32,000 nt of DNA, taken from assembly GCA_000025185.1 (NCBI GenBank), contig CP001848.1, positions 360,001-392,000 of the forward strand. Direction: 5' to 3'. This document shows positions 4,006-20,494 of this stretch, piece after piece. Under the pieces are notes generated by a model. That model did not search any database, was not told the origin of the DNA, and saw only the letters and a program-made list of their open reading frames with translations. The stretch is from Pirellula staleyi DSM 6068 (GTDB taxonomy: Bacteria > Planctomycetota > Planctomycetia > Pirellulales > Pirellulaceae). A program made the position numbers and the translations under genes. Position 1 is the stretch's first letter; the number at the start of each line of letters is the position of its first letter.

Positions 4006-4007
4006 TA

Positions 4008-4200
4008 GAACCCATTTCAGAACCTTTTGACGCAGATAAGTGCACAGGTGAGGTGTAGGAACGTCTGATAGAGATGGCCGTAACATTCGTGGCGTACGAT
4101 GATGCGGGGGAAGTTGCCGGGCCAGCCGATTGTGCGTTCGATGATCCAGCGGTTGCTGTAGCGACACAGCTTGCGGCCATCCTGCGTGGCTGGTAACGCA
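4008..4200 (-). mobile_element. remnant (3' end only) of a second, different IS5-superfamily element
   Basis: The last ~58 codons of ORF 4017-4340 read ..RKLCRYSNRWIIERTIGWPGNFPRIIVRHECYGHLYQTFLHLTCALICVKRF*. This is the conserved C-terminal block of DDE_Tnp_1-type transposases (compare RRWVVERTFGWLSRFRRLARDYERL in the other IS). The upstream part shows no transposase similarity. Boundaries are approximate. Confidence 0.5.
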
Positions 4201-4726
4201 GTTGAAAACCGCAGACAAGGTAAACATGAAACGTGCACCCTAAGCCGTGTCCGTCTAACGACGGGGGTTTCACGGAAAGGGAAACCTTGCCTAAAGCAGC
4301 GAAGGTTACTCCGTCTTCGGTAGCTGAGCGGTTTCGGCAATGACCTTCTGCATTAAGTATTCCGATACGGTGTATCGCTTTAGTTGATTCATAAAGTCGC
4401 TGTGAAACTGTTCCGGGACATGATCGAAGCTCTGCACATCGATGTTGCACCGCTGCCTTGAACCGCCTTGCGCAGTTCGTCGCAGCGCCAGAACGGGCAG
4501 CTATGAAGGTTACCGCAGAGGAACCAGTGACTGAACGGATCAAGCAGCAGATGGATGAAGTGCAGTGCGAAAAGCCGCAACGGGCAGCGGGTTGGGCAAG
4601 GTAGCTCCCCACGCGGCCTCCTTGCAGTCCGTTTTCATCACGGCAACAATGTGCACGCGGTTTGCGGCAATCGGTATTGCCTCCGTTTTCCAGATACGCC
4701 GCTTACCATTCAGATGTGAGTTCAGC

Positions 4727-7147
4727 ATGACGACCGAATGGCTCGCCGATGACGCACACAAGGCATTTCGAGCGTTCCTCACTACGATCAAACCAGACGA
4801 GGACATCAACGAAGCAGCGACGAGGTTGCGGTTCATCGACGATATTCTGATCAAGGTTCTGCAATGGGACAAGAACCATGTTTGGCCAGAATCACATGTC
4901 AAAAACGTCGGCTATATCGACTATGAGTTCAATAAGCCACGCCCCTCCTTGATTCTGGAGGCGAAGAGTGTGGACAAAACCTTTATACTTCCCGGTTACG
5001 AGTATCCCGCGGAGCCGGTTCCATTTAGCCTGATTGCAAGCGAATGCAAGGAGGCCGCCGCAGCGCTTACGCAGTGCCAAAACTATGCTAACAAGCGTGG
5101 TGCCCGCTATTCCGCCATTTCGAACGGCCACCAATGGCTGTTGTCGATGACGTTCGTCCAAAACGAACCCGTCGAAGATCGGCTGGTGTATGTCTTCGAG
5201 TCGTTGGACGCGATCAACAAGAAGTTCAGAGCATTCTTTGAATGCTTCGGGCCTATGGCGATCCGGTCAAACCAACCGAGTATGAAGCTTTTAGACGCTC
5301 GTCGCGCGCCAGCTCCCGCAAAATTCTCCACGACAATCCCTGGCTATCCTGTCGCCGCCGACCGTAATTCCTTGGCACCTTCGGTCGGCGGATTGCTGCA
5401 ACTTATCTGGGAGGCCATTGATGGCGATCAGGACAATGAGCTCTTTCTGCGCAGTTGCTACATTCCCTCGGCACCCTCTTCGGACATGTTGAAAAAGGCT
5501 CACACCTTGCTGTCCCAGCGGGCCACAACTGACGAGCAGCTGGCTGCAGCCGATGTTAAACCAGCGACTCGGAGGTCGGTCCTCGAACATCAGGACCGAT
5601 CAGACCGCGAACAACCAGTAGTGATCCTAGGACGAATTGGACACGGCAAATCCACGTTCCTGAAGTACCTGAGACACATCGAGGCCAAAGACATACTGTC
5701 TAGTAAGTATCTTCAGATTGACCTCAATTTCCTGCGCACCCCCGCAACGGCTGCCGAAGTACCTAATTTTGTAATGAGGCGAGTTCAAGAGCAGCTGAAG
5801 GGGTACGGAATCGAATACGCGGACGATCCTTTCGTTCGGAGGGTTCTGAAACGCGAGTTGAATGACTTCCGGAAGTCACCGCGAGGAGTGCTGTTAAAGG
5901 AAAAGCCAGATGAACTTCGGGAGGCGGAGGTAGACTTCCTTGAAACGTTCACCAACGACGCTGAACGATACATGGCTCTAGTGATGAAGTTTATCCGTCG
6001 ATCGCATCACAAGTCGGTAGCCATTTTCTTCGACAATTTGGACCGCCGCGGTGACGACCTTCAGGAGGCGGCATTCCTGCGGGCCGCTGCGATGGCGAAT
6101 GACTGGGGAGTTCTGGTATTCGTCTGCCTTCGACCGGGGAGCGTCCAACGGTCAAGTGCGGCGGGAGTCTTGGACACCATGGCTCCACGAATGCTGGTAA
6201 TCCCGCAACCTGACATTGCCGTCGTACTCCGGAAACGCTTCCAGTACGCAAGCAAGTATGCAGGACTCAGTCTTCCTTCGGACGCCTACACCCACAATAC
6301 TTTCGGTGCAGACGCCGACAAACAGCTACCAGAGGCGTCTCGCTTCTTCGCCATGTGCGATGATTCCATCCATTCCAATCCGGTGCTTGCGGAACAGTTC
6401 GAAGCCGTATCGAACGGAAACATCCGTAGGGTAATGGAGTATGTCCAGAAAGTGATAACAAGCCGACATCTCGACACGCAAAAGATACTGGATAAGTTGG
6501 CAAAGCCGGACGGCTATACGCTTGCCGATCACGAGACAAACCGAGCATTGATATTTGGTCCATACATACACTTTGACTCACGAGAGTCTCTCTTCACGAA
6601 CCTGTTTGACATCTCGCACGCAGATCCGACCGAGCATTTTTCGCGTGTGTTCCTGCTCGACTACTGCCATCGCCACGCAAATAGCGTGACAAATCACGGC
6701 TACATCCCGGTCACGACGCTCCAAGAGTATATGGCGTCCCTAGGCTACTCAGCCAACCATATAACTGAGTCTTTGTCACTTCTGGTTGAACGCAATTGCC
6801 TCGAAGGACAGGACGAATATCGTGACCAAGAGGAAACGCCCAAGCTCGGAGCGGACGTCCGCATCACGAGCTTGGGCAGTTTCCACATCACTACTCTGGT
6901 GCGGACCCAAGAGTATATGGACGCTATTTCCATCGACACACCGATTCTCGACGAAACAGTGCGTGCCTCGATAAAAGACGTGGAAGACATACGCAGCCGT
7001 CTCAAGCGTGCACGGGTTTTTACAGCATACCTAGCCCGTCAGGCTGAGTATTTCACGGACGCAGACGCTCGCAGGGTATTAGATGACATCTTAACGGCTG
7101 CCGCCAATGATATTACGGACATTGAGGCTGATTTGAAGAAGTCGTAA
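4727..7147 (+). CDS. PD-(D/E)xK (type I restriction HsdR-N-like) nuclease domain fused to a P-loop NTPase and a C-terminal helical domain
   Basis: N-terminus: ..INEAATRLRFIDDILIKVLQW..VGYIDYEF..PSLILEAKS..LTQCQNYA..YSAISNGHQW. This is the D..ExK core plus the QxxxY / NG..W pattern typical of HSDR_N-type nuclease domains. Walker A GRIGHGKST is at nt 5630-5656 and the Walker-B-like VAIFFDNLD follows. I prefer the ATG at 4727 over the GTG at 4565, because the upstream 54 codons overlap decayed sequence. Confidence 0.75.
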   Translation: MTTEWLADDAHKAFRAFLTTIKPDEDINEAATRLRFIDDILIKVLQWDKNHVWPESHVKNVGYIDYEFNKPRPSLILEAKSVDKTFILPGYEYPAEPVPFSLIASECKEAAAALTQCQNYANKRGARYSAISNGHQWLLSMTFVQNEPVEDRLVYVFESLDAINKKFRAFFECFGPMAIRSNQPSMKLLDARRAPAPAKFSTTIPGYPVAADRNSLAPSVGGLLQLIWEAIDGDQDNELFLRSCYIPSAPSSDMLKKAHTLLSQRATTDEQLAAADVKPATRRSVLEHQDRSDREQPVVILGRIGHGKSTFLKYLRHIEAKDILSSKYLQIDLNFLRTPATAAEVPNFVMRRVQEQLKGYGIEYADDPFVRRVLKRELNDFRKSPRGVLLKEKPDELREAEVDFLETFTNDAERYMALVMKFIRRSHHKSVAIFFDNLDRRGDDLQEAAFLRAAAMANDWGVLVFVCLRPGSVQRSSAAGVLDTMAPRMLVIPQPDIAVVLRKRFQYASKYAGLSLPSDAYTHNTFGADADKQLPEASRFFAMCDDSIHSNPVLAEQFEAVSNGNIRRVMEYVQKVITSRHLDTQKILDKLAKPDGYTLADHETNRALIFGPYIHFDSRESLFTNLFDISHADPTEHFSRVFLLDYCHRHANSVTNHGYIPVTTLQEYMASLGYSANHITESLSLLVERNCLEGQDEYRDQEETPKLGADVRITSLGSFHITTLVRTQEYMDAISIDTPILDETVRASIKDVEDIRSRLKRARVFTAYLARQAEYFTDADARRVLDDILTAAANDITDIEADLKKS

Positions 7148-7149
7148 TA

Positions 7150-8145
7150 CGGACTCTTCCTAACTTGACTTCGCACGGGCCCGTTGTGCGTCTCGGCCAT
7201 CCGACGACGCCTCCCATAGAAAGTTCTTGACGAGGGCAATCGTCCGCGATAGGTTCGGCTCACGCATGGGCAATTCTGCCCGGTGAAGTATGGAGAGCCG
7301 GGCTGGAATCGGCTAGACACTGATGGGCCTATCTGGATAGAAGAACCGAACACGCTAAACGGTTTAGTTTCGTCGTCGAAGCGGACCTTCTCAAGAAAGA
7401 AGTAAAGCCCGATTGGACGGGGTTCCATGCGGATAACGTCGGCAATCGATCGGCTTTTTAGCCTCCGGCGAGTAGCTTCCGAGTTATAGCCTCTACCCCC
7501 CACGATAGCCTGCGGTCGGCGATGTCGCCGATGCATGCTGAGTTCGCAATTCGCAATCAGCTTTTCGAACTCGGTCGACTCGTGACTTTGACCAGCGGTC
7601 GCCGTGACACCGAGCACAATTCCATTGCCATCGGTGAGCAAGTGCAGTTTGGTAAAATAGCCTCCGCGCGAGTAGCCAATCGCATTTAAATCGTCGTTCT
7701 CTGGGCTTTTTGACAGCATTCCCGAAGCACATCGATGGGCCCGCACGACACTGCCGTCGATGCACCAGCGCTGTCGGCTGATCTTGCCTCGGGTGTCGAG
7801 CAACTTCAGTGGTACGCGATTGATCGAGTCCCATAATCCACTGCAGGTCCAGCGCCGGAAGCGGTTGTAAGCTGTCTGCCACTTGCCTAGTTCCGCTGGC
7901 ATATCCCGCCACGGGGCACCTGTTTTGAGAACCCACAGGATGGCATTGATGGTCGTGCGATGATCAGCCCAGGGGCGTCCGGGATGGCCTGTTTTCGCCT
8001 TGGGCGAGCAGAGGTCGTATTGCGTTAAACTCTCGATCCGTGAGAAGATGTCGCAGCATTTGGCATCCCTGTTTGAGTCACCGTGGTAAGTAACTCAGGC
8101 AGGTTGCCAAATGCCCTTTTCAAAGGTCAATTAAGAGACAGCGCC
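7150..8145 (-). mobile_element. third IS5-superfamily element (DUF4096 + DDE transposase), frameshifted and decayed
   Basis: On the minus strand the start at 8058 gives MLRHLLTDREFNAIRPLL. A frameshift follows, then ..GRPWADHRTTINAILWVLKTGAPWRDMPAELGKWQTAYNRFRRW..DGSVVRAH..GYSRGGYFTKLHLLTDGNG..TAGQSHES..GGRGYNS. The C-terminal third has lost similarity. A terminal sequence CTGTCTCTTAATTGACC (complement of 8125-8141) has a degenerate partner GACTCTTCCTAACTTGAC at ~7152-7169. Ends are approximate. Confidence 0.6.
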
Positions 8146-8187: not shown

Positions 8188-9849
8188 ATGCCTGACTCAA
8201 ATCGATCATTTTCATCACGGCACTTTCCGTATCGGAAACACGATCGCAATATCGCAGCTGATGCGGCAACGGCAGGGCTGGAATCTTCCGACGCTCCCCA
8301 GGTTCCAGCTCTAGTACCGAGGACTGTCTATCGTTTCGTTCTTGGGCAGGATCTGCGTCCAATCGCAATGAACGCAAACGACATTGGTGTATGGCTCAGA
8401 GATCCGTTTGGAAAGTTTGTTATCTCGCAAGGCCGGTTCCCTCTGACACTGCGGAAGCTACTGGAACAATTTGATAAAGCGGAGAGTCGACTAGACGAGC
8501 AGCAAAATTTTGTAGTTGCTGATGGTGGGCAGATTTTGTGGAACGCAGAGACGGAGTTCGTGGAGCGGAGCATGCGGTTCGCAATCACTCGCTTTAACGC
8601 TCAAGGCGACAGCGTATTGATCAGCACTGCGGTCCCTTTCGATTCAGAGAGCCAGTTTTTACAGCTTCTTGCATGGGACGCAAGTAATGAAGTTTTCAAC
8701 TACTACGAGCGCCGTAACGGCACTTGGATTTGGGCGGGCAACTCATATCACGCGTTGCGAGAACCCACGAGAGGTAAAGGACCGTTCGATAGCCACGTTA
8801 ACGGTTCGTTGGTAATGAAGGAGTTGAAATTTCCCTGGATGCACTGGCACAGTATGGCATCGATCATTTCGGATGACGTATTGGCCCCAAGCGATCTATT
8901 GCGAACCGATCCGATCTGGCGATCAAAGCTTGGTGCCGATGACTTCGAAATAGCGGTGGTAAGGCCTGGAATACGTAAATGGACAGAGGCCAGAACGAAA
9001 AAATTCGTCAGGGATCACTCGTCCGAAAATGCTTCCAATGCACGCGAAATACTCCGCCATCTGTTCGAAACAACCACCGTCAACTTAATCGCCTCGGGTG
9101 AACAAAGTCGCTCGATTACCGACCAGTCGTCCGTGAAGCTTCCGATCACGTTCTTTCTGAATTCTGACGTTCTGTTCGATTTGCTCGAACTTGAGCCCGA
9201 AATTGTGGTCCCGTCGGTTGCAGGGGAGTTTTATCGCGAAAGCCTTCGTACATTTGAATTCAAGCTACAGACGAATAACTTCGAGCAACCCGGCGATACG
9301 CATTTCGCTTTCATCGTTCCCGAAGCCGCCTTTGAGGACAATCTGGTAGTTGCCGAGTTGTTGAAGCAATCTGTGGTCTCAGCACGATTCGTTGCCTGCG
9401 TATTGATGGTTGATTTTGCAAATCCCATCTCCTCTTCAAGTCGCGAACTTTTACTCAAGTATATTCCTGACCGAATGGCTATACGTGATGGCGTCCTCGA
9501 CCTAGAGGCACAGTTCATAGCAAATGTTGAGGCCGCTATCAGTGAAACCGATGAATCGGATCCTGCATCGCCGGAACAGCAGTTCTTAAGCCATTGGAAC
9601 TTGGGAGACGCCTGGAAGCAGGCATTTGAGTCTCGAGTCGAAGCTTATTTTCAAGCAATCCAGCAACGTCTAGGCACTCAGCATGGGTACGATGATTACA
9701 TCAGGCTAGCCGAATCACGTCGACGCGAGTTTCGAAGGCGTCCCCTTTCTGAGTTCGATCTCACCCTTCCAGTCACCAACATCCCAGCCGATGCACCTCT
9801 GCTTCAAATGTTTGAAGATGGACGTGTCGGAATCAAGCAAGGAACCTAG
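8188..9849 (+). CDS. hypothetical protein (553 aa), first gene of the six-gene operon
   Basis: A long uninterrupted ORF with no competing ORF. It stops 3 nt before the next start. I recognise no catalytic or targeting motif. A distinctive segment is FLQLLAWDASNEVFNYYERRNGTWIWAGNSYHALREPTRGKGPFDSHVNGSLVMKELKFPWMHWHS. The start is uncertain; the alternative is the ATG at 8367 (MNANDIG..). Confidence 0.7.
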   Translation: MPDSNRSFSSRHFPYRKHDRNIAADAATAGLESSDAPQVPALVPRTVYRFVLGQDLRPIAMNANDIGVWLRDPFGKFVISQGRFPLTLRKLLEQFDKAESRLDEQQNFVVADGGQILWNAETEFVERSMRFAITRFNAQGDSVLISTAVPFDSESQFLQLLAWDASNEVFNYYERRNGTWIWAGNSYHALREPTRGKGPFDSHVNGSLVMKELKFPWMHWHSMASIISDDVLAPSDLLRTDPIWRSKLGADDFEIAVVRPGIRKWTEARTKKFVRDHSSENASNAREILRHLFETTTVNLIASGEQSRSITDQSSVKLPITFFLNSDVLFDLLELEPEIVVPSVAGEFYRESLRTFEFKLQTNNFEQPGDTHFAFIVPEAAFEDNLVVAELLKQSVVSARFVACVLMVDFANPISSSSRELLLKYIPDRMAIRDGVLDLEAQFIANVEAAISETDESDPASPEQQFLSHWNLGDAWKQAFESRVEAYFQAIQQRLGTQHGYDDYIRLAESRRREFRRRPLSEFDLTLPVTNIPADAPLLQMFEDGRVGIKQGT

Positions 9850-9852
9850 AAC

Positions 9853-10992
9853 ATGGCACTCTCCCATTTTGACCCGCCGGCATTCCTGGATGACTTCACT
9901 CAGGAACAAAAGGACGCTTGGAGCGAATGGATTTCCCAACAGATCGATGCCGCGATCGCTGGTGATCCTAACGGCTTGGAGTTCGACGCGCCTCGCGCCC
10001 AGTTCTTCAATGCGACGAAAGTAGACTTTGCCGCCGATATGGCAACGCTGGATATCGAATGGACCGCCTTTCCTCGAAACGTTCAGATCAGTTCGATCAG
10101 CGATCGCCAACGCTGGCGTCGTGCGGAAAGCAGTAGGGATCTGCAGGACGAGTACTGCGAATGGAGCGTTGAACGAGATCCGAACACGGAAAAGATTACG
10201 CGTGTCACCTTCACTTGCGAAGGCCCAGAGTACTGGCAGTTTCTCGCTGCTACATCGCCACAGAAAGTGCTTGAACTATACAAGCAGTTCGTTAGCCAGT
10301 CAGTTCAGTTAAGCGACCTGTTTTCTACGAACGGACGCTACAATCCCCGCAACGTTTGGAATAATTCATCGACTAATGGCGCGATGCATTTGATCCAACC
10401 AAACAATACGCTTGGAGCCGAGATTGAGCTTGCTGGTGGATCGAGCGTTGTACGATCGATCAATGGTCAATTGTTAACTGGCGAACGCGAATTGATCGAT
10501 TGCGGCAAGTACGGTGGCCGCGAACGGCACAGCGACCCACGGATTGGCTCCGAAGTAAACAGCCTAACGCGGCAAAAGGCTGACGTAACGTTGGCCAATC
10601 CGGTTGGCCTGTATTTTTCAAAGCTGATTACCGCTGGCTGGGAAGTTCCCAATGGTGAGGATGCTCAGAATTTCTGGAAGTATGTTCGAGGCACGGCAAG
10701 TCATCCAGTCCGCGCCGTCTTTGAAGTGCCATCTGATCGTGGTTTCGTCGTGGGAGATATCAAGATTGATGGCCGTGATATCGAGTTCGGAGCGCAGATT
10801 GCGGACAAGATCAAAATAAAGCTCATCGGCGTAGCTCACAAGTTCGGTCAAAACGCCGTAGCCCCGATGACTGGCTGTCGGCGCGTAAGGCAGCAAGTGT
10901 CGGAATCGATCGAGGCCGTTGTTCTTCAGAAAAAGCCAACCGTATCCAGCATACTGAGTCTACGGGCGGTGACTGCGCCTGCGCGGCATTAG
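9853..10992 (+). CDS. hypothetical protein (379 aa), second gene of the operon
   Basis: The ORF begins 3 nt after the previous stop. I recognise no motif. Distinctive segments are LQDEYCEWSVERDPNTEKITRVTFTCEGPEYWQFL and NGAMHLIQPNNTLGAEIELAGG. There is no signal peptide or TM segment. Confidence 0.7.
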   Translation: MALSHFDPPAFLDDFTQEQKDAWSEWISQQIDAAIAGDPNGLEFDAPRAQFFNATKVDFAADMATLDIEWTAFPRNVQISSISDRQRWRRAESSRDLQDEYCEWSVERDPNTEKITRVTFTCEGPEYWQFLAATSPQKVLELYKQFVSQSVQLSDLFSTNGRYNPRNVWNNSSTNGAMHLIQPNNTLGAEIELAGGSSVVRSINGQLLTGERELIDCGKYGGRERHSDPRIGSEVNSLTRQKADVTLANPVGLYFSKLITAGWEVPNGEDAQNFWKYVRGTASHPVRAVFEVPSDRGFVVGDIKIDGRDIEFGAQIADKIKIKLIGVAHKFGQNAVAPMTGCRRVRQQVSESIEAVVLQKKPTVSSILSLRAVTAPARH

Positions 10993-11031
10993 TAATGAAA
11001 GCTCTATACCCAAACCAAACGGAGAATCCCT

Positions 11032-12195
11032 ATGGCCTATTTGACTCAGGATCAGATTCACGAGATTCATTCTCAGGCAGTGAACCGAACACCGGGACTA
11101 CTTGACGCGTGGAAACAAATGTTGATTGGTCTTCCAATCGCATATATGAGCACACTTCCGAACATTGATGGAAACAAGAACCTTGGATTGCTTGCCCAGT
11201 TGAGCACAATGAATGAGGTTGATGTCATCAAAGGTGGAGTAGTTCCTCTTGAAGTTTGGTTAAACAACGCTGCGTACTTTTCTGAGCTCTTTCCTGATAG
11301 CCAAAAACTGTACCGCGACTACGCGCGAGTCATATTGGAGAAGCGTGCTATTACGAAAAGAAACGCTACGAGCTCTTTTGATCAAACGGTGAATGCACCA
11401 TCACTGAAAGGCATGTCCGAAGTTAAGGAACGCATAATCTTCATCAATGAGATGGTTCCGTACGGTTTTGCACAAGGGGCTGTGCGAACGGGGCAGTCGG
11501 TCGCTCGCCTCATCGTTCCAAGGTTCGATGGGAAGCAACCCCGGAAACTACCCTTTACCGACGAGCAGATAAAGTACTTTGGCACGGGCTGGCTATTAGG
11601 GACTCGTCACATTGTTACGAATCATCATGTCATCAATGCAAGAGACGCTGGCGAAGCAGATGCGATTTCTGAGGACTTCAACCTTCAAGGTATTAAGACG
11701 ACCGTGCAGTTTGATTACAACCAACGGAACGCGGCCGGTGACCCGCGAAGTGTTAAGCAGGTCTCCGGGTACAACAAAGAACTTGATTATGCTGTTCTTG
11801 AACTTGAGGCTCCATCAGGGCGCGAGCCGCTTCCCGTTTTTGGAGGGCAATTTGTCCTGCCAGCTCAGTCACTTTTTCCGGTGAACTTGATCCAGCATCC
11901 AGGAGGTGAGCCAAAGAAGCTAGGTATTCGCAGCAATCTTGTGGCGGCCGTAAACGAGGTGAATCTTGCCTATTTCACAGATACCGAACCTGGTTCCTCG
12001 GGTTCTCCTGTTTGCTCGGACGATTGGTATGTACTCGCATTGCACAAAGCTTCATCTGCGTCCTATGGGGAGTTCGAGTACCAAGGCAAGCAAACGGCTT
12101 GGGTAAATCATGGAACGCGAATTGACGTTATCCTCGCAGACTTAAAGCAAAACCACTCGACTTTGTGGAATCTTATCGGCGCTAATGTGGTTTAG
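11032..12195 (+). CDS. trypsin-fold (S1-type) serine protease with N-terminal ~95-aa helical adaptor-like domain
   Basis: The catalytic triad is intact: His in GTRHIVTNHHV (H199), Asp in ELDYAVLEL (D252), Ser in TDTEPGSSGSPV (S323, nt ~11998). A GGAG lies 8 nt upstream of the ATG. N-terminal aa 4-97 are homologous to the C-terminus of the next protein. Confidence 0.9.
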   Translation: MAYLTQDQIHEIHSQAVNRTPGLLDAWKQMLIGLPIAYMSTLPNIDGNKNLGLLAQLSTMNEVDVIKGGVVPLEVWLNNAAYFSELFPDSQKLYRDYARVILEKRAITKRNATSSFDQTVNAPSLKGMSEVKERIIFINEMVPYGFAQGAVRTGQSVARLIVPRFDGKQPRKLPFTDEQIKYFGTGWLLGTRHIVTNHHVINARDAGEADAISEDFNLQGIKTTVQFDYNQRNAAGDPRSVKQVSGYNKELDYAVLELEAPSGREPLPVFGGQFVLPAQSLFPVNLIQHPGGEPKKLGIRSNLVAAVNEVNLAYFTDTEPGSSGSPVCSDDWYVLALHKASSASYGEFEYQGKQTAWVNHGTRIDVILADLKQNHSTLWNLIGANVV

Positions 12196-12206
12196 GAGGT
12201 TCTGCT

Positions 12207-13412
12207 GTGGCCATTATTATCCCGGAGATACGAGAGCTGGAATCAATTGTTCACCAGATGCGGCCGGCCTTGCGTGTTTCGAAAAATAGATTTGAACGCT
12301 CGCCAATCGGCTGGGAAGAACTGGACGCACATCGAGAATCGATCGAACGAGCCCTCCAGGCAACTGGGCGACTCGAATCGGACGATCCGTCGGTGCCCTA
12401 TTTTGGTACAGCATTTCTCGTTGGTGACGGAATAGCCCTAACCACACGTCATGTTGTGGAGTTGTTTGCGAATGGGCATGGCGAAACAGATCTAAACATC
12501 AAACGCCACCGCAAAGTATGGATTAATTTCAATGCCGAAACAGAAGGCGACACTAGCGAAGTTGCCTATGTGACCGGCATTGAATTCATTCATCCTTACT
12601 GGGATGTTGCGGCGATTCGGGTAGAAACATCGCGGGGTGGACTTGTACTTGAGTCCGCTCCTTCCACCGCGAATACTAATATAACGGTAATCGGTTACCC
12701 AGCTTTGGACATGCGGTCTGACTTAGACATCCAGCTAAGGATCTTTGAATCCGTATTCAACGTCAAACGCTTGCTCCCAGGAAGACTAGGTGGCGAAGAA
12801 TTGATTGAGTCCTACGGCAACAACGTGCTGGCGCTAACCCATGATGCTTCCACTTTAGGCGGTACTGCTGGCGCTCCGGTTATTGACATACGATCTGGCC
12901 ATGTCGTGGGAATTAACTTTGCAGGCGTATATCTGAAAGCTAACTACGCGGTCCCGTCATGGAAATTGATGCAAGATTCACGAGTTAGACGGCATCTTGG
13001 CTTTCTAGAGCCACCATGGATGAACCTTTGGGAAAAGCCTATTCAACCACTTAACTTGAAAGAGAATCCGGCGTGGACCGTAATTTCTGGGCAGGCAATT
13101 AGGAATCATGAGGCCTACCTTACCCACGATCAAGTCTTGGATCTTTGCCGACTTTTGGTAGGTGCCTTTCCTACAGATGAAAGCATTGCATCGCTGTTTC
13201 TGGGCATTGCTCCAGAAATCGTCGCCTCGCTACCTAGCGGTAACAATCCGAAGGAGAAATTGCTAAATCGACTTCAAGCGTTAAATAACATCGGTCGCAT
13301 CATAGGTGGTCAGTCACCGCTGCAATTGATATTGAAAACGGCAGCATTGCTAAGGGAGTCGTTTCCAGACGAACAGATCTTGCAGCAGTACCTAGCAATT
13401 GTAAGTAAATAA
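12207..13412 (+). CDS. trypsin-fold pseudoprotease (nucleophile Ser replaced by Ala) with C-terminal adaptor-like domain
   Basis: GTG start with a strong AGGAGG 8 nt upstream. His is retained (ALTTRHVVE, H82) and Asp is retained (YWDVAAIRVE, D133). The GxSGxP motif reads GGTAGAP, with Ala221 encoded by GCT at 12867-12869. C-terminal aa 305-401 match the N-terminal module of the preceding protease. Confidence 0.88.
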   Translation: MAIIIPEIRELESIVHQMRPALRVSKNRFERSPIGWEELDAHRESIERALQATGRLESDDPSVPYFGTAFLVGDGIALTTRHVVELFANGHGETDLNIKRHRKVWINFNAETEGDTSEVAYVTGIEFIHPYWDVAAIRVETSRGGLVLESAPSTANTNITVIGYPALDMRSDLDIQLRIFESVFNVKRLLPGRLGGEELIESYGNNVLALTHDASTLGGTAGAPVIDIRSGHVVGINFAGVYLKANYAVPSWKLMQDSRVRRHLGFLEPPWMNLWEKPIQPLNLKENPAWTVISGQAIRNHEAYLTHDQVLDLCRLLVGAFPTDESIASLFLGIAPEIVASLPSGNNPKEKLLNRLQALNNIGRIIGGQSPLQLILKTAALLRESFPDEQILQQYLAIVSK

Positions 13413-13478
13413 TCATTGTCACTCCTAGTCAACCAAGATAGCTCATTTACAAGACTCAGTCACGGAATCTGAAGGTTT

Positions 13479-15398
13479 ATGCCAAGACTCTTGCAACAAA
13501 AACATCGGCTTCACAAGATACTTATCGAATGCAAACTAGGGGATTCGGTTGATTTGCTCGTTTCATCAATCAACTCAAGCGTTCGTGCCCAATTGCCAAA
13601 TGAAGATATCCCAGCAAAGCGATTGCTGGGGATAATTGATTTCCTATGCGAGTATGATCTGCCAAAAAACAGCGCAGACCCCCTGGTTCAATTTCTGCAA
13701 CGAGTCGTTCACCTCTTGGATCAGTATCCAGACCAATGTGAAGAGGTCAAAGTGTTTTTATTGAGCCTTTCGACAAGAGATACTGAACTCAATAATACGC
13801 AACACGATTCGTCAACGGACAACGCACCCGCTGGGCATCATCCTGCTATTGGCGTTCTCGTCATCGCTACAACTCATGTGGAGCTCGACGCAATGAAGTC
13901 GAGTCTCAATGTTTCGGACCGCCTGTCGATTGGCACGTTGGAGTATTGGCACGGCACAGTCGGGGGGCTTGAAATTGCAGTCACGCAAAGTGTTCCGCCT
14001 GAGGGAATTGTGATTCTTCAGGAAACGCTTCAACCTTCTGCAGTAATCTATGTATGCCCAGTAATTTGTCTAAAGAAGCAACCTAAAGACCAAGCACATA
14101 CTATCCTTGCAAGTACTTTGCATGAGAATCCTAAGCAGGCCTCTCGGACTCGTTCGTTGCGACTGTGTGACGCAATGACATCGTACATGGCAAGAACTTT
14201 GCCGTCTGGGAGATACGCAAATGTAGTTGAGATTCTTGATATACCGCAATGGGAACAACTAAACCCCGCGGCGCTACAGCATGTAAAATTGTCGTTTGTT
14301 GTGGCCTCAGACAATTCGATTCTAAGTTTACTGAAGGAAATCGACTCACCTGTTGCTTTGCTTGGCTCGGTGGTATGGAGGCATGAGCCCCGATCTGAAA
14401 AAATACCAACACTGCAGGAAATCTTGGGCTCTGAAGCCCACCATATAGCGTCTGAAGCATCTGGCAGTATTTTGCATGAGATATTATCCACCGAGAGCTG
14501 TCCGTATAAGAACGCCGAACGGGTGCTATCGGTCGACAGTTCACATCCCGGAGCATTAGACGTTTGGATACGATCACCAAGCGACGCTGATGACGTCAAG
14601 CCGTTTGTGAATCGAGCTCAATTCCGGACTGATCTTGTTAGACTACTTCGTCCTGGCAATCCGCGAACTATGGTAGTCAGCGGTGAGGAGGGCTCGGGGA
14701 AATCATTTTTATTTGAGTTCCTTATGCACCTTCACATCACGAACGTTGTGCGGGCAAATATCATCCCAATACAGTTGCCGAAGGAGTCACGTCCTCCTGA
14801 ATGGACTTGGAGAAAGCTGATGCAACTCTTGTGTGAAGGGCTTAAAATTCAAAGATTGGCGATAGATGAGTTCCACGACCCAAGCGAGTTTGTGTCCCGA
14901 TATCTTGTGAGAACGATAAGCCCAAGCAGCAGCAAAAGTTTCGAGAGCATGCCGGCAAGACATCAAGCAAACATATTTGTCTTCGACGGTTTTGCGAGGC
15001 AAGGCTTTAGCCCTGATATTTATGACACCCTTCTCGCGCTGGAAGATGCTATTGCGAGTTGTGCCCTTCCGAACTTTCGATGTTTAGTTCTTGGTTGCAA
15101 TGCACATACTTTGTTGCGGGACAGCCCGTCGCGAATTGTGCGTACTTACAAGGTTGACGATGTTCCTGAGGCCGCAGATATAGATGGATTTATTGCGCAC
15201 TTTTCTCGTCAACATAACGTTGCACCAAGCCCAGAAGCTATACAGACTTTTCGCGAGACAATATCTTTTAACGTTGCTGCTGTAGATGAACGGCTCGGAG
15301 CTGCCGAGCGGCACATCCGAATGCTTAAGGTGAATTCAATTTTTCTGAGGGCATCACAGCTGCTCCTCGCTCAGTCAAGTACAATTGGAGGTGTATAG
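13479..15398 (+). CDS. P-loop NTPase with N-terminal adaptor-like domain and a possible degenerate nucleoside-phosphorylase-like middle domain
   Basis: Walker A GEEGSGKS is at nt 14682-14705 and the Walker-B-like NIFVFDGF follows. N-terminal aa ~5-95 share the LP..LL..PL..L..(Y/F)PDxQ pattern with both proteases. The segment AIGVLVIATTHVELDAMKSSL..EYWHGTVGGLEIAVTQS resembles the start of PNP_UDP-type phosphorylase folds, but the later glycine-rich motifs are not evident. Confidence 0.75.
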   Translation: MPRLLQQKHRLHKILIECKLGDSVDLLVSSINSSVRAQLPNEDIPAKRLLGIIDFLCEYDLPKNSADPLVQFLQRVVHLLDQYPDQCEEVKVFLLSLSTRDTELNNTQHDSSTDNAPAGHHPAIGVLVIATTHVELDAMKSSLNVSDRLSIGTLEYWHGTVGGLEIAVTQSVPPEGIVILQETLQPSAVIYVCPVICLKKQPKDQAHTILASTLHENPKQASRTRSLRLCDAMTSYMARTLPSGRYANVVEILDIPQWEQLNPAALQHVKLSFVVASDNSILSLLKEIDSPVALLGSVVWRHEPRSEKIPTLQEILGSEAHHIASEASGSILHEILSTESCPYKNAERVLSVDSSHPGALDVWIRSPSDADDVKPFVNRAQFRTDLVRLLRPGNPRTMVVSGEEGSGKSFLFEFLMHLHITNVVRANIIPIQLPKESRPPEWTWRKLMQLLCEGLKIQRLAIDEFHDPSEFVSRYLVRTISPSSSKSFESMPARHQANIFVFDGFARQGFSPDIYDTLLALEDAIASCALPNFRCLVLGCNAHTLLRDSPSRIVRTYKVDDVPEAADIDGFIAHFSRQHNVAPSPEAIQTFRETISFNVAAVDERLGAAERHIRMLKVNSIFLRASQLLLAQSSTIGGV

Positions 15399-15400
15399 TG

Positions 15401-18376
15401 ATGGCTAAAGTGGATCTGACTGTTGAACTTTTCGCCGACTCTGGCCGCCCTCGATCTCGTGGTCATTTTTTCGAGGCAGCTTCTTTACTTACAAGCTTTC
15501 TACCAGCGCAGCTTCGCGCAGCCGATGGCAGCTTAATCGATCGTCAATCGTTAGATATTCTAGCGCGTAATTGTGATACGACCGGTTCGGAATGGATACT
15601 TGACGATGCTGTTCGTCGCGACGAAATCCATGCCCTTGAGTCTCTAGAAGTGCCCATATCGATTTGGAAAAACAACGCGGAGAATTGTCCGGATGACCCG
15701 GTTCAAAAGATGCTTCAGCAGGTCGTGCGAGAATCTGTGAAAGTGGACGAATTGGATTCTACTCAGTTATCGTCTCTACTAAGAGTCCTTTCTTGGTTTG
15801 GTACCTCACTCATCAGCAAATCGCTTCGGCTGCCAAGTATTGATGAAGTCCGTGCAGAGTTCGGATATAAGACTTGGTGTGATCGTTTGACGCGCTACCG
15901 CACACCAGACTTCTTAGGTCGTGAACAAGAAATGGACGAACTCTATCGATTTATGGTTAGCCCACTTTCTTTTTCGGCAACTGTTTGGGGGGTTGGTGGG
16001 GTAGGTAAAACAGCCTTGCTCTCAAATTTTGTCCTTGAACACTGCTTGAATTCTGAAGCTCGAAGGCCATTTGCTTGGTTTGACTTTAACCGTAGTGACT
16101 TACTTAATGCGGAGTCACCAAATTCACTTCTTCTCGAGGCCGCTTCGCAACTGTCGCAACAGAGAATTGTCTCTGTAGGTACGCAATCGGAAATTGAAGA
16201 TTTCTGCAGAGACATGATCGATGGCCCAATCATTAGCCGCCAGCTACTCACGTCCCAGCAAATCATACGCTTTGGCAAAATTCTTCAGAGTTCTGGTACA
16301 TCAGGTATAGAGTATATATGGGTGCTTGATAGCTTGGAAGAACTTCTCGAAACTGCTCCAGGTTTCATTGACTATATCACAGCGTATCTCGAGGAGCTTC
16401 GCGAAATCATACCTCAGCTGCGGGTTTTCTTCGTTGGTCGTAGCCAGTACTTCGGAGATACGTCGGTTCGACGTGAGCTGCACCTCCAATGTCTTGAGCT
16501 TAGTCTTGCAAGGGAGTTCCTGGAAAGAGGCGGTGTTCCAGAAGCAGAATCTTTATTCATCGCGAATGCATGCGGAAAACACCCACTGCGATTATCGCTA
16601 GCGGCAAGCATTTATCGCCAAGCGATGAAGGATCGCCAAAGTGGTTCTCCATTTGAGCAATTGAGATTCCTGTCAACTACTTTACCGAAAGGCTCAGAAA
16701 AAACATTGTTTCTTCGGTTTCTTGAACATCTTCACGACGATGATATCAAGAGACTTGTAGCGCCGGGCTTCTTGGTGCGGAGAATAACACCACTGGTTAT
16801 CGAGAAGATACTAGCTGAGCCGTGTGGTCTTGAGGTTAGAAGTGCGGTTGAAGCGACCGCCGTTTTTCAAAAGCTGATTAGAGAAGTCTCACTAATCGAG
16901 TCTGTCGACGACGAGACTGCGGTGCTGCGGCGAGACGTGCGCAAGGAATTGTTGCCTCTTATTCGCAGTGCATTCAATCACGAAGCCAATGCCATCCATA
17001 CATCCGCTATAGAATTCTACCGTTTTCGTCGAAATGACGAATCAAGAGCAGAGGAAGTTTACCACCGTTTAATGATTGGAACTGATGCCAGAACATTAGA
17101 TCGATGCTGGCGACCATCGCTAGCTGAAAGACTGGTTGGTAGCATTGACGAAATGCCGTTTCGGTCGCAAGTTTACCTTGCTAGGAAAACGGGAAGAGGT
17201 ACTACGGTGCCAACGGATTATTTCTCTGATCGAGCGGACAATTTCGACTGGGAATGGAGAGTCGCAAGTCGTGCAAGATCATTGCTCGATCACGATGAAC
17301 CTGAGAAAGCGATCGCACTAGTGCGCGAGCGAGATTTTCGTAGCCCTACCAGTCCACTTTACGTCATTGAGTCTAGAGCTTTGCGACGACTAGGAAAACT
17401 GGCGGAGGGGCGTCGAATACTCGAGAATGCGGCCAACAAACTAGCTTCGCTTACCAATTTTGGAACGAATGCGGATAGAGGGCATGCTATCGAGTTGTTG
17501 CTTAGTTTCTTTTGGATAGAACTCGATTGTTCGGAATGCCTGTCGGCCCGCGAGACATTGGACGATCTTTGCAAGTTGATTGGCTTTAAGACCGATCTTA
17601 TCGAGGTTTGCAATAACGAAAAGCCAGTTTTGCATTTAGAAATATTGCTCCGTTCGATTGCCTTGAGTAAGAAATGTCCTCAGCAGTCGTCCGTGGTTGA
17701 TCGGGACCTCGCTTACCGCAAAGCGCACGAAATACTTAGCGATGAGGAGATATTGGAAGATCATGATTTTGAGGATTCGCCGAAGATGTTCCGTCGCTTG
17801 GCAGCGGAAGTATGTTGGAATGATGTAAAAGTTGTTTCCCGTGTCGTCAGGAATTCCGGTATCGGCACTCCCTACCCGTTGGCGTGTGAGGTTCTTGGTG
17901 AAGAGATTGCTAGGTGGTCGTCGGGGCGATTTGAATTGGAAACCCTCGGACCAATACCAGTCGATTGCAACAGGCCGAGTGTTTGGAAACATTGGTTTAT
18001 GCGAGCGTCTTCTTCTTCGATAAGCGATTCATTTTCACGATTAATTGAATCTAGAGAGCCTCCGCGAAAAGTCATGGAAGCTGTTCGCGACTTGCTCCTG
18101 TTGTCTGATGAAGGGCCTAGAACCGAAGGAGATATAGAATACCTAAAAGATATCGCAATGGCGCAAAACGAGCGTTTACAACTAAGAAAACACCTTCGCC
18201 ACTATGGACACTCACCTGAGAAGATTAGGCACCTTTTTAGTTCTGGCTTTGGTTTGAGTTCCTATGATGTAATCTCGAAAAACGAAATCGATGCTCCTGT
18301 ATTGATCCGCGAGATTGCCTCATGGAGCGTTCGGTTTGGCCTTGCCAACCGTTTGCTCGATTCAATCAATGAATGA
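15401..18376 (+). CDS. STAND-type (NACHT/NB-ARC-like) NTPase with C-terminal helical (TPR-like) repeats
   Basis: FLGREQEMDELYRF..VWGVGGVGKTALLSNF gives Walker A at nt 15989-16012, followed by Walker B YIWVLDSLEELLE. The C-terminal ~450 aa are helix-rich, for example AIEFYRFRRNDESRAEEVYHRLM and EKAIALVRERD..LGKLAEGRRILENAANKL. The start is the ATG at 15401 (or the GTG at 15398), abutting the previous stop at 15396-15398, with GGAGG at 15387-15391. Confidence 0.88.
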   Translation: MAKVDLTVELFADSGRPRSRGHFFEAASLLTSFLPAQLRAADGSLIDRQSLDILARNCDTTGSEWILDDAVRRDEIHALESLEVPISIWKNNAENCPDDPVQKMLQQVVRESVKVDELDSTQLSSLLRVLSWFGTSLISKSLRLPSIDEVRAEFGYKTWCDRLTRYRTPDFLGREQEMDELYRFMVSPLSFSATVWGVGGVGKTALLSNFVLEHCLNSEARRPFAWFDFNRSDLLNAESPNSLLLEAASQLSQQRIVSVGTQSEIEDFCRDMIDGPIISRQLLTSQQIIRFGKILQSSGTSGIEYIWVLDSLEELLETAPGFIDYITAYLEELREIIPQLRVFFVGRSQYFGDTSVRRELHLQCLELSLAREFLERGGVPEAESLFIANACGKHPLRLSLAASIYRQAMKDRQSGSPFEQLRFLSTTLPKGSEKTLFLRFLEHLHDDDIKRLVAPGFLVRRITPLVIEKILAEPCGLEVRSAVEATAVFQKLIREVSLIESVDDETAVLRRDVRKELLPLIRSAFNHEANAIHTSAIEFYRFRRNDESRAEEVYHRLMIGTDARTLDRCWRPSLAERLVGSIDEMPFRSQVYLARKTGRGTTVPTDYFSDRADNFDWEWRVASRARSLLDHDEPEKAIALVRERDFRSPTSPLYVIESRALRRLGKLAEGRRILENAANKLASLTNFGTNADRGHAIELLLSFFWIELDCSECLSARETLDDLCKLIGFKTDLIEVCNNEKPVLHLEILLRSIALSKKCPQQSSVVDRDLAYRKAHEILSDEEILEDHDFEDSPKMFRRLAAEVCWNDVKVVSRVVRNSGIGTPYPLACEVLGEEIARWSSGRFELETLGPIPVDCNRPSVWKHWFMRASSSSISDSFSRLIESREPPRKVMEAVRDLLLLSDEGPRTEGDIEYLKDIAMAQNERLQLRKHLRHYGHSPEKIRHLFSSGFGLSSYDVISKNEIDAPVLIREIASWSVRFGLANRLLDSINE

Positions 18377-19643: not shown

Positions 19644-20494
19644 GAGCCTGTTATTGACTTATCTGCTTGCAATTGCTGTAGTTAGGGGATGAAACACACG
19701 ACAGGGAAGTCGTATCCCAGCGACGTAACGGATGCGGAGTGGGAATTCCTGCTCCCTTACTTAAGCCTCATGCGCGAGGATGTGCCGCAGCGTTCCTATT
19801 CACTGCGCGACCAGTTTAACGCCATGCGCTACGTGGTGAAAACAGGAATCCAGTGGGACTTCCTGCCGCATGAAATGCCTCCGTGGCGGGCCGTCTATCA
19901 ACAAATGCGACGCTGGTTCGAAGCGGGAGTCTTTGAGGAAATTGCGCAAGACCTCAGGCTGATGGTGCGTCTTTTGGAAGGACGTGACGAACAGCCAACC
20001 GCTGTGATCATGGATGCGCGGACACTCCAATCGACGCCTGAAAGTGGTGGCCGCGCGGGATACGACGGTGCGAAGAAAAAGAAGGGCCAATATTGCCGTC
20101 GATACACTGGGAAATCTGCTGGCGGTTTACATCACTGCAGCCAATGAGCAAGACCGCGACCAAGTCGCCATCCTCTCGCAGAGAGTGCAAGAGGTGACGG
20201 GCAGCAACGTGGAGATAGCGTACGTCGATCAAGGCTATACGGGCGCCGCAGCAGCCGAGCAGGCTGAAGCATCCTCGATAAGATTACAAGTTATAAAACA
20301 TACCGAGACCAAGCGAGGCTTTGTCCTATTGCCACGCCGCTGGGTTGTTGAGCGCACCTTTGGTTGGCTGAGTCGCTTCCGCCGTCTCGCGCGTGATTAT
20401 GAGAGACTCACCGTCACGCTCACCAACTTCCACTGGCTCGCCTTCCTCACCATACTCCTCGCAAAAATCTACAGACAAAGTCAATAACTGGCTC
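19644..20494 (+). mobile_element. IS5-superfamily insertion sequence, copy 2 (851 bp)
   Basis: Terminal IRs GAGCCTGTTATTGACTT (19644-19660) and AAGTCAATAACTGGCTC (20478-20494) are flanked by TA on both sides. Same element as 3155-4005 and 31529 onward. Confidence 0.92.
19689..20487 (+). pseudogene. IS5-family transposase split into two frames by an 8-nt deletion (orfA 19689-20147, orfB-frame 20014-20487)
   Basis: orfA has the DUF4096-type N-terminus (YPSDVTDAEWEFLLPYL..KTGIQWDFLPHEMPPWRAVYQQMRRW). The orfB frame has the DDE part (ANIAVDTLGNLL..YVDQGY..RRWVVERTFGWLSRFRRLARDYERL). Compared with copy 3, 8 nt are missing at 20086/20087, so the two halves sit in frames 0 and +1. Confidence 0.85.

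Follow-up and report, generated by a model that had tools for sequence, protein, structure and literature searches.

Effector-associated domains (EADs) were introduced in work on vWA-MoxR ternary systems and on GAP1 GTPase systems (Kaur et al. 2020, PMC7159879). According to the "EAD principle", EADs carried by the termini of effectors and by a core NTPase couple these proteins homotypically (PMC7159879; Kaur et al. 2021, PMC8195603). EAD5 (PF19957) was predicted to be a mixed alpha+beta domain (Kaur, Burroughs, Iyer and Aravind, eLife 2020, PMC7159879). In the literature searched, we found no report of binding, oligomerisation or defence for EAD5 or for the locus described here.

Like published EAD5 domains (PMC7159879), the copies found in Pirellula staleyi are small, non-enzymatic and terminal; copies 1 and 2 score far above the cut-off and copy 3 was recognised by a deeper profile. 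The arrangement also follows the EAD principle (PMC7159879), with EAD5 on one core NTPase and on peptidase-fold proteins encoded by adjacent genes. In contrast to published EAD systems (PMC7159879), Pfam scans of 16 window ORFs (of 45 with at least 120 aa; 217 ORFs in all) detected neither vWA nor MoxR genes. The window is the whole 32,000-nucleotide stretch of P. staleyi DNA that was analysed. The locus matched none of the PADLOC or NCBIfam system models.

As shown in Table 1, four genes encode two trypsin-fold proteins and two NTPases. The start of NTPase-2 overlaps the stop of NTPase-1, and an SD-like GGAGG lies 5' of this start. Two upstream genes, encoding proteins of 553 aa and 379 aa, are tightly linked to protease-1, with intergenic distances of 3 and 39 nt, and probably belong to the same operon. 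Neither protein had a match in Pfam, NCBIfam, PADLOC or PDB. No counterpart of the pair was present in 21 related genomic loci, and no match to either protein was listed when 7 window proteins, both of these included, were searched against 80 metagenomic loci.

Table 1. Features of the P. staleyi locus (window coordinates).
Feature	Position	Strand	Residues	Description or basis
Two upstream genes	8188..10992	+	553 aa, 379 aa	tight linkage to protease-1
Protease-1	11032-12195	+	387 aa	N-terminal EAD5, then active-looking trypsin-like serine protease
EAD5 copy 1, helical core	11041..11358	+	protease-1 aa 4-109	AF2, hhalign
Protease-2	12207-13412	+	401 aa	trypsin-fold without nucleophile serine (GGTAGAP), then C-terminal EAD5
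EAD5 copy 2	13116..13406	+	protease-2 aa 304-400	Pfam EAD5 profile positions 1-98
NTPase-1 (Psta_0287)	13479-15398	+	639 aa	EAD5, middle domain, small-NTPase-family P-loop domain
EAD5 copy 3, diverged	13494..13736	+	NTPase-1 aa 6-86	deeper profile, hhalign, phmmer
NTPase-1 middle domain	13836..14588	+	aa ~120-370	~250-residue insertion relative to small-NTPase family
NTPase-2	15398-18376	+	992 aa	large STAND-type; family-specific N-domain; helical/TPR-like C-terminal region
NTPase-2 N-terminal domain	15398..15922	+	aa 1-175	not an EAD5 copy
Local EAD5-like patch in NTPase-2	15578..15685	+	aa 61-96	includes VPISIWKNNA; hhalign
EAD1-like tail of NTPase-2 (possible, degenerate)	18167..18367	+	aa 924-990	hhalign

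Residues 3-148 of protease-1 matched Pfam EAD5 with an E value of 3.8e-43 (99.8% in hhalign against the EAD5 profile for copy 1), and residues 304-400 of protease-2 did so with 8.8e-14. The two copies share 32% identity (BLASTP, E 5e-12). The Pfam model's final ~35 positions reach into the pre-trypsin linker of protease-1 and are missing from the C-terminal copy. On sequence grounds, the assignment of copies 1 and 2 to EAD5 is certain. AF2 modelled copy 1 from a 45-sequence alignment as a six-helix, all-alpha domain (helices 6-19, 27-31, 36-39, 49-62, 72-83 and 88-109; pLDDT 96.5). The coordinates and quoted peptides of the preliminary description were correct, and the columns given there as shared (LP; PL..WL; FPD) coincide with the conserved EAD5 columns L42, L57, N61, P72, L77 and A80. 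Unlike the published alpha+beta prediction, the ~110-residue Pirellula core is thus all-alpha as modelled. The proposal of a homotypic EAD-type adaptor agrees with the two Pfam EAD5 matches and with the published arrangement, but its death-fold or CARD-like label is not supported: Foldseek against PDB returned nothing better than E 1.7, with the TNFR1 death domain only at rank 27 (TM 0.39/0.45, E 6.3).

Both proteins matched Pfam Trypsin_2, protease-1 with E 6.3e-17 and protease-2 with E 3.7e-13. The triad H199/D252/S323 of protease-1 was kept in all 19 of 19 orthologues. In protease-2 the nucleophile position is Ala, and it is Ala, Gly or Thr in 7/7 comparable trypsin paralogues that carry EAD5 at the C-terminus; those lacking EAD5 retain GGNSGSP. 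Because the nucleophile serine is lost in protease-2 and in all seven of these paralogues, protease-2 is probably an inactive, predicted pseudoprotease. The preliminary description spoke of two proteases, of which the second is probably not a working one.

The N-terminus of NTPase-1 matched Pfam EAD5 at 14.9 bits (E 0.023), which falls short of the 27-bit cut-off. With a deeper profile built from 155 EAD5 domains, no window sequence included, it scored 31.4 bits (E 1.6e-9 over all 217 window ORFs), and hhalign gave 96.5% (E 8e-10, 81 columns) for EAD5 and only 2% for EAD1. In a phmmer search NTPase-1 matched 10 EAD5 proteins (best E 1.3e-10), in each case precisely over the EAD5 region; a Pfam scan of 8 of the 10 confirmed EAD5 there in every one. 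These comparisons confirm a diverged EAD5, seen solely with deeper profiles. Further along, NTPase-1 has a Walker A motif (GEEGSGKS), and its aa 373-602 matched a family of small NTPases (hhalign 99.2%, E 3.5e-19), which are ~350-aa P-loop proteins encoded beside relatives of NTPase-2. The intervening middle domain had no Pfam match. Its top PDB sequence match was the MTA/SAH nucleosidase 5b7g (E 0.067, over 46 residues only), and it is possibly a degenerate nucleoside-phosphorylase-like domain. No close homologue of NTPase-1 was found and none of the 150 best EAD5 proteins joined EAD5 to a small NTPase, so the Pirellula architecture is a single example.

NTPase-2 has a Walker A motif (GVGGVGKT) at aa 198. 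Its Pfam matches, to AAA_16, ATPase_2 and TPR_14, were all below threshold, and its relatives matched nSTAND1, NB-ARC and TPR models. Its tail had no Pfam match. Against a 121-sequence EAD1 profile the tail gave 49% in hhalign (E 1.7e-4, 65 columns) with a score of 23.7 (shuffles: mean 10.0, maximum 19.7), and against a profile of C-terminal EAD1 domains alone just 0.9%; it is a possible degenerate EAD1-like segment.

Relatives of NTPase-2 were encoded in 136 metagenomic stretches, of which 80 were kept; 74 non-duplicate metagenomic loci contained such relatives. Across ~95 related loci an adaptor-trypsin protein, an adaptor-small P-loop NTPase and a large STAND-TPR NTPase recurred, in the gene order protease, small NTPase, large NTPase. 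The small NTPase adjoined the NTPase-2 relative in 63/74 metagenomic loci, with an N-terminal EAD1 on 45 of the 63. EAD1-trypsin was encoded in 27 loci, 26 of which also had an EAD1-small NTPase; EAD5-trypsin occurred in 12, in none of which the small NTPase clearly carried EAD1. Pfam confirmed the EAD1 assignments. We found no name for this EAD1-type cassette in the EAD literature examined. The Pirellula locus shares with it the small NTPase domain, the N-domain-bearing large NTPase, the trypsin effectors and the gene order. It differs in a probable pseudoprotease with a C-terminal EAD5, in the NTPase-1 insertion between adaptor and P-loop domain, in the two additional upstream genes and in its adaptor, which is EAD5 instead of the usual EAD1 on protease and small NTPase alike. 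This matching of EAD5 on both partners supports homotypic docking. Of the 12 metagenomic EAD5-trypsin cassettes, 1 (L044) showed a core protein with a partner EAD5: its large NTPase ends in EAD5 and is followed by an EAD5-trypsin. In 13 Streptomyces genomes a single frame of ~1750-2000 aa, truncated at a contig edge in one locus, encodes a small-NTPase-like P-loop together with an NTPase-2 homologue, EAD5 and trypsin, and is followed by a second trypsin gene.

The preliminary description had placed the adaptor in all four proteins, reading the NTPase-2 N-terminus as an EAD5 that had diverged strongly and gained an insertion of ~20 residues; both NTPases would then recruit the proteases directly. 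BLASTP did align the protease-1 EAD5 with this N-terminus over 58 residues (E 8e-4), and the LP and PDD motifs are compatibly placed, but there was no match to Pfam EAD5 at E<=10 and the 155-domain profile gave 3.0 bits (E~1). With the Pirellula sequence, hhalign found a co-linear patch (38%, E 3.4e-4) that aligns with EAD5 helix 4, loop and helix 5 and covers the most conserved EAD5 motif (VPL..WL.NA vs VPISIWKNNA), though over only 36 of ~100 columns. The patch score of 26.0 was reached by 0/150 shuffles (mean 11.4, sd 2.1, maximum 19.9). The signal weakened as homologues were added, to 1.2% with 12 from Streptomyces and 0.8% with 42 metagenomic ones (43-member profile); those 42 family members scored at most 19.1, at inconsistent positions, and the motif is not conserved in the family, whose consensus there is AL.ANP. 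By these comparisons the patch is above composition chance and confined to the Pirellula protein. Homology of the N-domain began at aa ~20 in 50/84 relatives. The domain was equally present in EAD1-type and EAD5-type cassettes and did not co-vary with the adaptor, and the adaptors on large NTPases of relatives sit C-terminally. The family profile gave 1.7% against EAD1, and a single-sequence AF2 model of the N-domain was uninformative (pLDDT 33.5). The fourth copy was thus unconfirmed: the module is present in protease-1, protease-2 and NTPase-1, the NTPase-2 N-terminus is the constant domain of its own STAND family, and direct recruitment by both NTPases is quite unlikely.

EAD5 may instead be a shared regulatory or sensing module, responding to a common ligand, peptide or invader component or acting as an autoinhibitory lid, in a parallel response without assembly. 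The diversity of its partners (kinase, TIR, KAP NTPase, FGE-sulfatase, LRR) and the 21/155 domains that stand alone would fit such a role, but 116/155 are terminal (N or C) in multidomain proteins. EAD5 docking is itself a prediction, and a core-protein EAD5 is not visible in most EAD5-trypsin cassettes; yet adaptor types match within cassettes (EAD1 in 26/27, EAD5-EAD5 in Pirellula), and the Streptomyces direct fusions stand in for the adaptor link. Proteins bridging two adaptors, EAD1-EAD5 in P0075, P0133 and P0144 and EAD5-EAD7 in P0064, fit docking and not sensing. We consider a sensing role unlikely. It is also hardly credible that the recurrence is a functionless relic of trypsin-gene duplication. 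Such an origin would suit the trypsin fold shared by protease-1 and protease-2 and the fact that, of all EAD5 copies here, theirs resemble each other most, but these copies lie at opposite termini, the two trypsin domains come from different subfamilies, and EAD5 is also found on the unrelated NTPase-1. The EAD5 family has 401 members at E<=1e-3, and both EAD5-trypsin arrangements are kept across phyla; an N-terminal EAD5-trypsin followed by a C-terminal-EAD5 protein recurs in Kuenenia, which has a third EAD5 on an LRR protein, in Mesorhizobium and in other proteobacteria. These conservation data already contradict a relic.

Like the death-fold adaptors (CARD, DED, Pyrin, DD) of the animal apoptosome, inflammasome and DISC, EAD5 is a small helical terminal domain on a protease and on an NTPase that would oligomerise. 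No relationship in fold or sequence was detected and the protease is trypsin-like, not a caspase, and the likeness is an analogy only. By the same analogy protease-2, as a probable dead paralogue with the adaptor of protease-1, resembles c-FLIP, a pseudo-caspase regulator. Like Avs and other NLR-like STAND defence proteins, the locus combines a STAND-type NTPase, a repeat sensor and a protease effector. Avs1b carries a trypsin-like protease, and the Pirellula trypsin domains gave weak matches to Avs1b and to a PADLOC NACHT-associated model. Avs-type effectors are fused to the NTPase in a single polypeptide, whereas the Pirellula effector is separate and predicted to be adaptor-linked, and the core has a second, small NTPase.

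We propose that the cassette core comprises NTPase-2 (STAND, with a helical/TPR-like sensor), the small P-loop NTPase and at least one trypsin-like protease. In Pirellula the small NTPase would be the C-terminal half of NTPase-1, immediately 5' of NTPase-2 and translationally coupled to it. NTPase-1 and NTPase-2 would form an NTP-dependent core that assembles when an invader is sensed. The EAD5 of NTPase-1 would then dock that of protease-1, concentrating and activating the protease, in parallel to the CARD-CARD contacts of caspase-9. Protease-2 may compete for or co-occupy this hub through its C-terminal EAD5, as a c-FLIP-like regulator or a substrate-binding subunit. Tethering of one active and one dead protease to the small NTPase is the most likely role predicted for EAD5 here, and the operon is probably one EAD5-coupled form of a widespread NTPase-and-protease conflict cassette of the immunity or programmed-death type. 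Since the adaptor concept was published in 2020, the Pirellula operon illustrates a known principle well and does not establish a new one.

The sequence of NTPase-1 is that of Psta_0287 from Pirellula staleyi DSM 6068. Its gene belongs to a block of six co-directional and tightly spaced genes that spans 8188-18376. The start of NTPase-2 overlaps the stop codon of NTPase-1, and a GGAGG lies just 5' of the overlap. Four proteins of this block had been described as sharing one helical adaptor of the death-fold, CARD-like or effector-associated domain (EAD) type, and the coordinates and peptides quoted for them check out.

Features of the operon and its flanks, with positions in the window
Feature	Position (nt)	Strand	Length or residues (aa)	Remark
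Further STAND-like P-loop NTPase	4565-7147	+	860	Weak AAA_16, ATPase_2 and nSTAND5 matches
IS4/IS5-type transposase ORF	7039-7902	-		DDE_Tnp_1 and DUF4096 matches (Pfam)
First upstream gene	8188-9849	+	553	Function not assigned
Second upstream gene	9853-10992	+	379	Function not assigned
Protease-1	11032-12195	+	387	
PF19957 model positions ~99-135 in protease-1	11329-11475			
Protease-2	12207-13412	+	401	
Trypsin domain of protease-2	12207-13076			
GGTAGAP motif of protease-2	12858-12878		218-224	
NTPase-1	13479-15398	+	639	
Inserted domain of NTPase-1	13836-14588		~120-370	
NTPase-2	15398-18376	+	992	
Extreme C-terminus of NTPase-2	18167-18367		924-990	
Two overlapping ORFs	19689-20487	+		Frameshifted IS5-type transposase by eye only

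Copies 1 and 2 of the module, at the N-terminus of protease-1 and the C-terminus of protease-2, both matched Pfam EAD5 (PF19957) above its curated cut-off of 27 bits. Protease-1 was matched over aa 3-148 (147 bits, E 3.8e-43) and protease-2 over aa 304-400 (51.9 bits, E 8.8e-14), in each case adjoining a Trypsin_2 domain, and the two copies share 32% identity (BLASTP, E 5e-12). The N-terminus of NTPase-1 reached 14.9 bits (E 0.023), under the cut-off, and that of NTPase-2 gave nothing at E<=10; the best BLASTP values were 3e-4 for protease-2 against NTPase-1 and 8e-4 for protease-1 against NTPase-2. Because these values were weak, an independent EAD5 family profile was built. Word-index homologue searches returned one protein for NTPase-1, one for the protease-1 EAD5 and six for a 45-sequence EAD5 alignment, and the data were instead supplied by an exhaustive profile search and by scans of loci. 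The exhaustive HMMER search, queried with both protease copies plus a metagenomic relative, yielded 401 proteins at E<=1e-3; 155 EAD5 domains were extracted from the best 150 of them, a set from which the window sequences are absent.

Against this 155-domain profile, aa 9-86 of NTPase-1 scored 31.4 bits (E 1.6e-9 in a search of the 217 window ORFs), and hhalign aligned it with EAD5 at 96.5% (E 8e-10) over 81 co-linear columns. A phmmer search from NTPase-1 found ten EAD5 proteins, each matched over its EAD5 segment (best E 1.3e-10), and Pfam confirmed EAD5 in all eight of the ten that were scanned. An assignment to EAD1 was rejected, with only 2% against the EAD1 profile. On these profile matches the N-terminus of NTPase-1, proposed as copy 3, is an EAD5 that Pfam misses. 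In the EAD class, copies from neighbouring genes would be expected to resemble one another most. The NTPase-1 copy is nearest to P0134, an EAD5 protein from the family search, and not to its operon partners; a metagenomic protein shares 72-77% identity with the protease-1 EAD5, and protease-1 orthologues reach about 47% over their full length. The proposed assignment of the module to the effector-associated domains is supported. EAD5 sits on the core NTPase-1 and on two adjacent trypsin-fold proteins, as in the layout given for this class by Kaur et al. 2020, in which a core component bears one copy and nearby effector or signalling genes encode the others, and all three copies are terminal, with a helical core of about 100 aa that has no catalytic motifs. 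Terminal placement in multidomain proteins was also found for 116 of the 155 EAD5 domains.

The fourth copy, placed by the preliminary description at the N-terminus of NTPase-2, was not sustained. Besides lacking a Pfam match, this region scored 3.0 bits (E~1) against the 155-domain profile, and hhalign gave 38% (E 3.4e-4) over just 36 columns (aa 61-96). Homologues of NTPase-2 were gathered from thirteen Streptomyces genomes and 80 metagenomic loci. Since the alignment to NTPase-2 begins already near residue 20 in 50 of 84 relatives, the N-terminal ~175 residues are a conserved domain of the NTPase-2 family. The profile of this domain is unlike EAD5, with 1.2% when built from 12 Streptomyces sequences and 0.8% from 42 metagenomic sequences, the best local alignment of the latter lying elsewhere than aa 61-96; the motif VPISIWKNNA, cited earlier for the fourth copy, corresponds to AL.ANP in the family consensus. 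The patch itself nonetheless stands out from noise, scoring 26.0 against a shuffle mean of 11.4 (sd 2.1, maximum 19.9; 0 of 150 reach it), while other family members (n=42) score at most 19.1 against EAD5, at scattered positions. A single-sequence AF2 model of the domain was uninformative (pLDDT 33.5). We read aa 61-96, on these sequence comparisons, as a lineage-specific local likeness to helix 4, loop and helix 5 of EAD5 within a domain that is not EAD5.

The helical fold proposed for the module was borne out for the EAD5 core by a confident AF2 model. Computed from protease-1 aa 1-110 and the 45-sequence alignment (pLDDT 96.5, pTM 0.89), it has six helices, two of them just 4-5 residues long, and no strand of three or more residues. 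The suggested relationship to the Death fold or CARD was not supported by either Foldseek or Pfam. Foldseek of the model against the PDB returned nothing at E<1 (best E 1.7), with the TNFR1 death domain at rank 27 (TM 0.39/0.45, E 6.3), and nothing significant was returned against viral models; Pfam Death, CARD and DED had zero matches in the three EAD5 copies. EAD5 was predicted to be alpha+beta in the original paper (PMC7159879); contrary to that first prediction, the core is all-helical as modelled here. Model positions ~99-135 of PF19957 are matched only by copies fused N-terminally to trypsin, and the protease-2 match ends at profile position 98. The last third of PF19957 probably spans the linker that leads to the protease domain, outside the adaptor core, and its inclusion may explain the earlier alpha+beta prediction.

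The catalytic triad of protease-1 (H199, D252, S323) was invariant among 19 sequences. Protease-2 keeps the His and Asp, and its Ser position is occupied by Ala within GGTAGAP. Seven comparable trypsin paralogues have a C-terminal EAD5 (three loci and four cluster representatives), and each of them lacks the nucleophile Ser, with Ala, Gly or Thr in its place; two of the seven have lost the His as well. Paralogues without EAD5 retain the Ser (GGNSGSP). Because the nucleophile is replaced and its loss is conserved in the C-terminal-EAD5 paralogues, protease-2 is most likely a pseudoprotease, and from their active-site residues these paralogues appear to form a conserved pseudoprotease family. 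The arrangement of an N-terminal EAD5-trypsin followed by a C-terminal-EAD5 protein is also found in Candidatus Kuenenia, in Mesorhizobium and in other proteobacteria. Among planctomycete relatives of the protease pair, that of Kuenenia (L001) is the closest, and the third EAD5 of this locus (12208-13707) is on a leucine-rich-repeat (LRR) protein, not on an NTPase. Motifs alone point to an endonuclease-I-like gene 5' of the Kuenenia proteases.

NTPase-2 has a Walker A GVGGVGKT and a Walker B VLDSLEE. Its own matches to Pfam AAA_16, ATPase_2 and TPR_14 were all under cut-off; its homologues matched nSTAND1 (31.5 bits, cut-off 27.1), TPR_12 and TPR_7 above cut-off, with further and weaker TPR and NB-ARC matches. 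NTPase-1 aa 373-602 falls within a family of small P-loop NTPases of about 350 aa (hhalign 99.2%, E 3.5e-19). Between its EAD5 and its P-loop domain, NTPase-1 carries a domain of ~250 residues that the small-NTPase family lacks. The start of this inserted domain (IGVLVIATTHVELDAM...) resembles nucleoside-phosphorylase or MTA-nucleosidase folds, and its best PDB sequence match is 5b7g, at E 0.067 only. P0069, another EAD5 protein from the family search, has a weak PNP_UDP_1 match. The extreme C-terminus of NTPase-2 has a weak EAD1 likeness (hhalign 49%, E 1.7e-4, z ~5.7 against shuffles) in which Pfam detects no EAD1, and no EAD1 partner for it is present in the window. Many relatives of NTPase-2 carry a genuine EAD1 at this C-terminal position.

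We counted the components over 74 non-duplicate metagenomic loci. A P-loop protein of ~350 aa lies directly 5' of the large NTPase in 63 of the 74, and this adjacent small NTPase bears an N-terminal EAD1 in 45. An EAD1-trypsin occurs in 27 loci, together with an EAD1-small NTPase in 26, so adaptor types match in 26 of 27 EAD1-trypsin cassettes, which is indirect support for homotypic interaction; the EAD1 assignments were confirmed by Pfam. An EAD5-trypsin occurs in 12 loci, and in none of them does the small NTPase show a clear EAD1. The small-NTPase N-termini in these 12 loci gave 89% against EAD1 and 0.4% against EAD5, and by sequence look like a diverged EAD1, not EAD5. In one of the 12 (L044) the large NTPase has a C-terminal EAD5 and is followed by an EAD5-trypsin. 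Compared with the EAD1-type cassettes, Pirellula has the same order of protease, small NTPase and large NTPase, with EAD5 in place of EAD1 on both partners. No name for this widespread three-part cassette, made up of an adaptor-trypsin, an adaptor-small NTPase and a large NTPase of putative STAND-TPR type, was found in the literature searched.

In Streptomyces (L007-L016 and L019-L021) one continuous reading frame (~1750-2000 aa) joins a small-NTPase-like P-loop domain, an NTPase-2 homologue, EAD5 and trypsin (for example, 5765-11026 of L021), the frame being truncated at the contig end in one locus. The fusion ties together the full set of Pirellula components. The Walker A of its small-NTPase-like part is degenerate (GEPDSGRS, with GRS replacing GKS), and a second, EAD-less and active-looking trypsin gene follows the frame. 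The N-terminus of the giant protein was rejected as an EAD5 (2.4%).

The operon block has a G+C of 0.47-0.52 against 0.53-0.58 in the flanks, with a drop from ~0.55 to ~0.48 across 8-19 kb, and transposase genes of IS type, those at 19689-20487 recognised by eye only, flank it on either side. Together with the further STAND-like NTPase, the G+C drop and the transposases suggest a horizontally acquired defence island. A promoter and terminator scan was uninformative, its counts being equal to or under shuffle expectation. The vWA-MoxR ternary systems (VMAP, iSTAND), the first context of EAD5, encode MoxR AAA+ and vWA proteins beside the EAD-bearing component; in Pirellula neither domain was found by Pfam among 16 scanned ORFs of the operon and nearer flanks, a set without the ORFs at 3162-4902 and those past 28 kb. 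The two upstream genes share the orientation of the operon, 3 nt apart from each other and 39 nt from protease-1. They had zero matches in Pfam, NCBIfam, PADLOC and PDB sequences and have no counterpart in the related genomic loci, the similar-size genes 5' of protease-1 orthologues being unrelated to them; possibly they are lineage-specific operon components. An EAD5 on these two proteins or on the further STAND-like NTPase was ruled out (hhalign E 0.19-0.48).

A mechanism can be proposed from the gene and domain anatomy and the published EAD principle (PMC7159879, PMC8195603). Sensing would fall to the helical or TPR-like C-terminal part of the large NTPase, which would assemble with the small NTPase, a pairing indicated by their recurrent adjacency (63/74), by the translational coupling in Pirellula and by the Streptomyces fusion. 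The EAD5 of NTPase-1 would then dock that of protease-1, which would be activated by proximity, and protease-2 would share the docking site and modulate the output. Proteins of ~200 aa that consist of two different EADs only (EAD1+EAD5 in P0075, P0133 and P0144; EAD5+EAD7 in P0064) likely bridge systems using different EADs. The concerted EAD5 on both Pirellula partners and these two-adaptor proteins are the strongest indirect evidence here for the predicted homotypic docking. A wider joint reading, which we regard as unlikely, would make this a natural adaptor-swap operon in which EAD1 was exchanged for EAD5 together on protease and small NTPase. The pseudoprotease, conserved and bearing the same adaptor, would by analogy with c-FLIP govern the active protease, and the lineage-specific patch at aa 61-96 would mimic helix 4, loop and helix 5 of EAD5 and let NTPase-2 engage the same hub. 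If true, apoptosome or DISC regulation would have a compact counterpart in bacteria, one with specificity controls built in.

Neither the EAD5 domain nor the adaptor principle is new. What the Pirellula operon adds to them is the particular cassette, the swap of adaptors, the apparent family of pseudoproteases and the EAD5 that had been missed on NTPase-1. One supplement of Kaur et al. 2020 mentions neither Pirellula staleyi nor EAD5. Since the adaptor idea is already published, the Pirellula finding opens no new category, and its value is that of a clean test case. In the literature searched, homotypic specificity of bacterial EADs has so far only been predicted. Here EAD5 occurs three times in one operon, on an active-looking protease, on a probably dead one and on a small NTPase, thus on three different scaffolds, and the relatives of the operon, which use EAD1 at exactly the same positions, provide a built-in control by which homotypic EAD specificity is directly testable.
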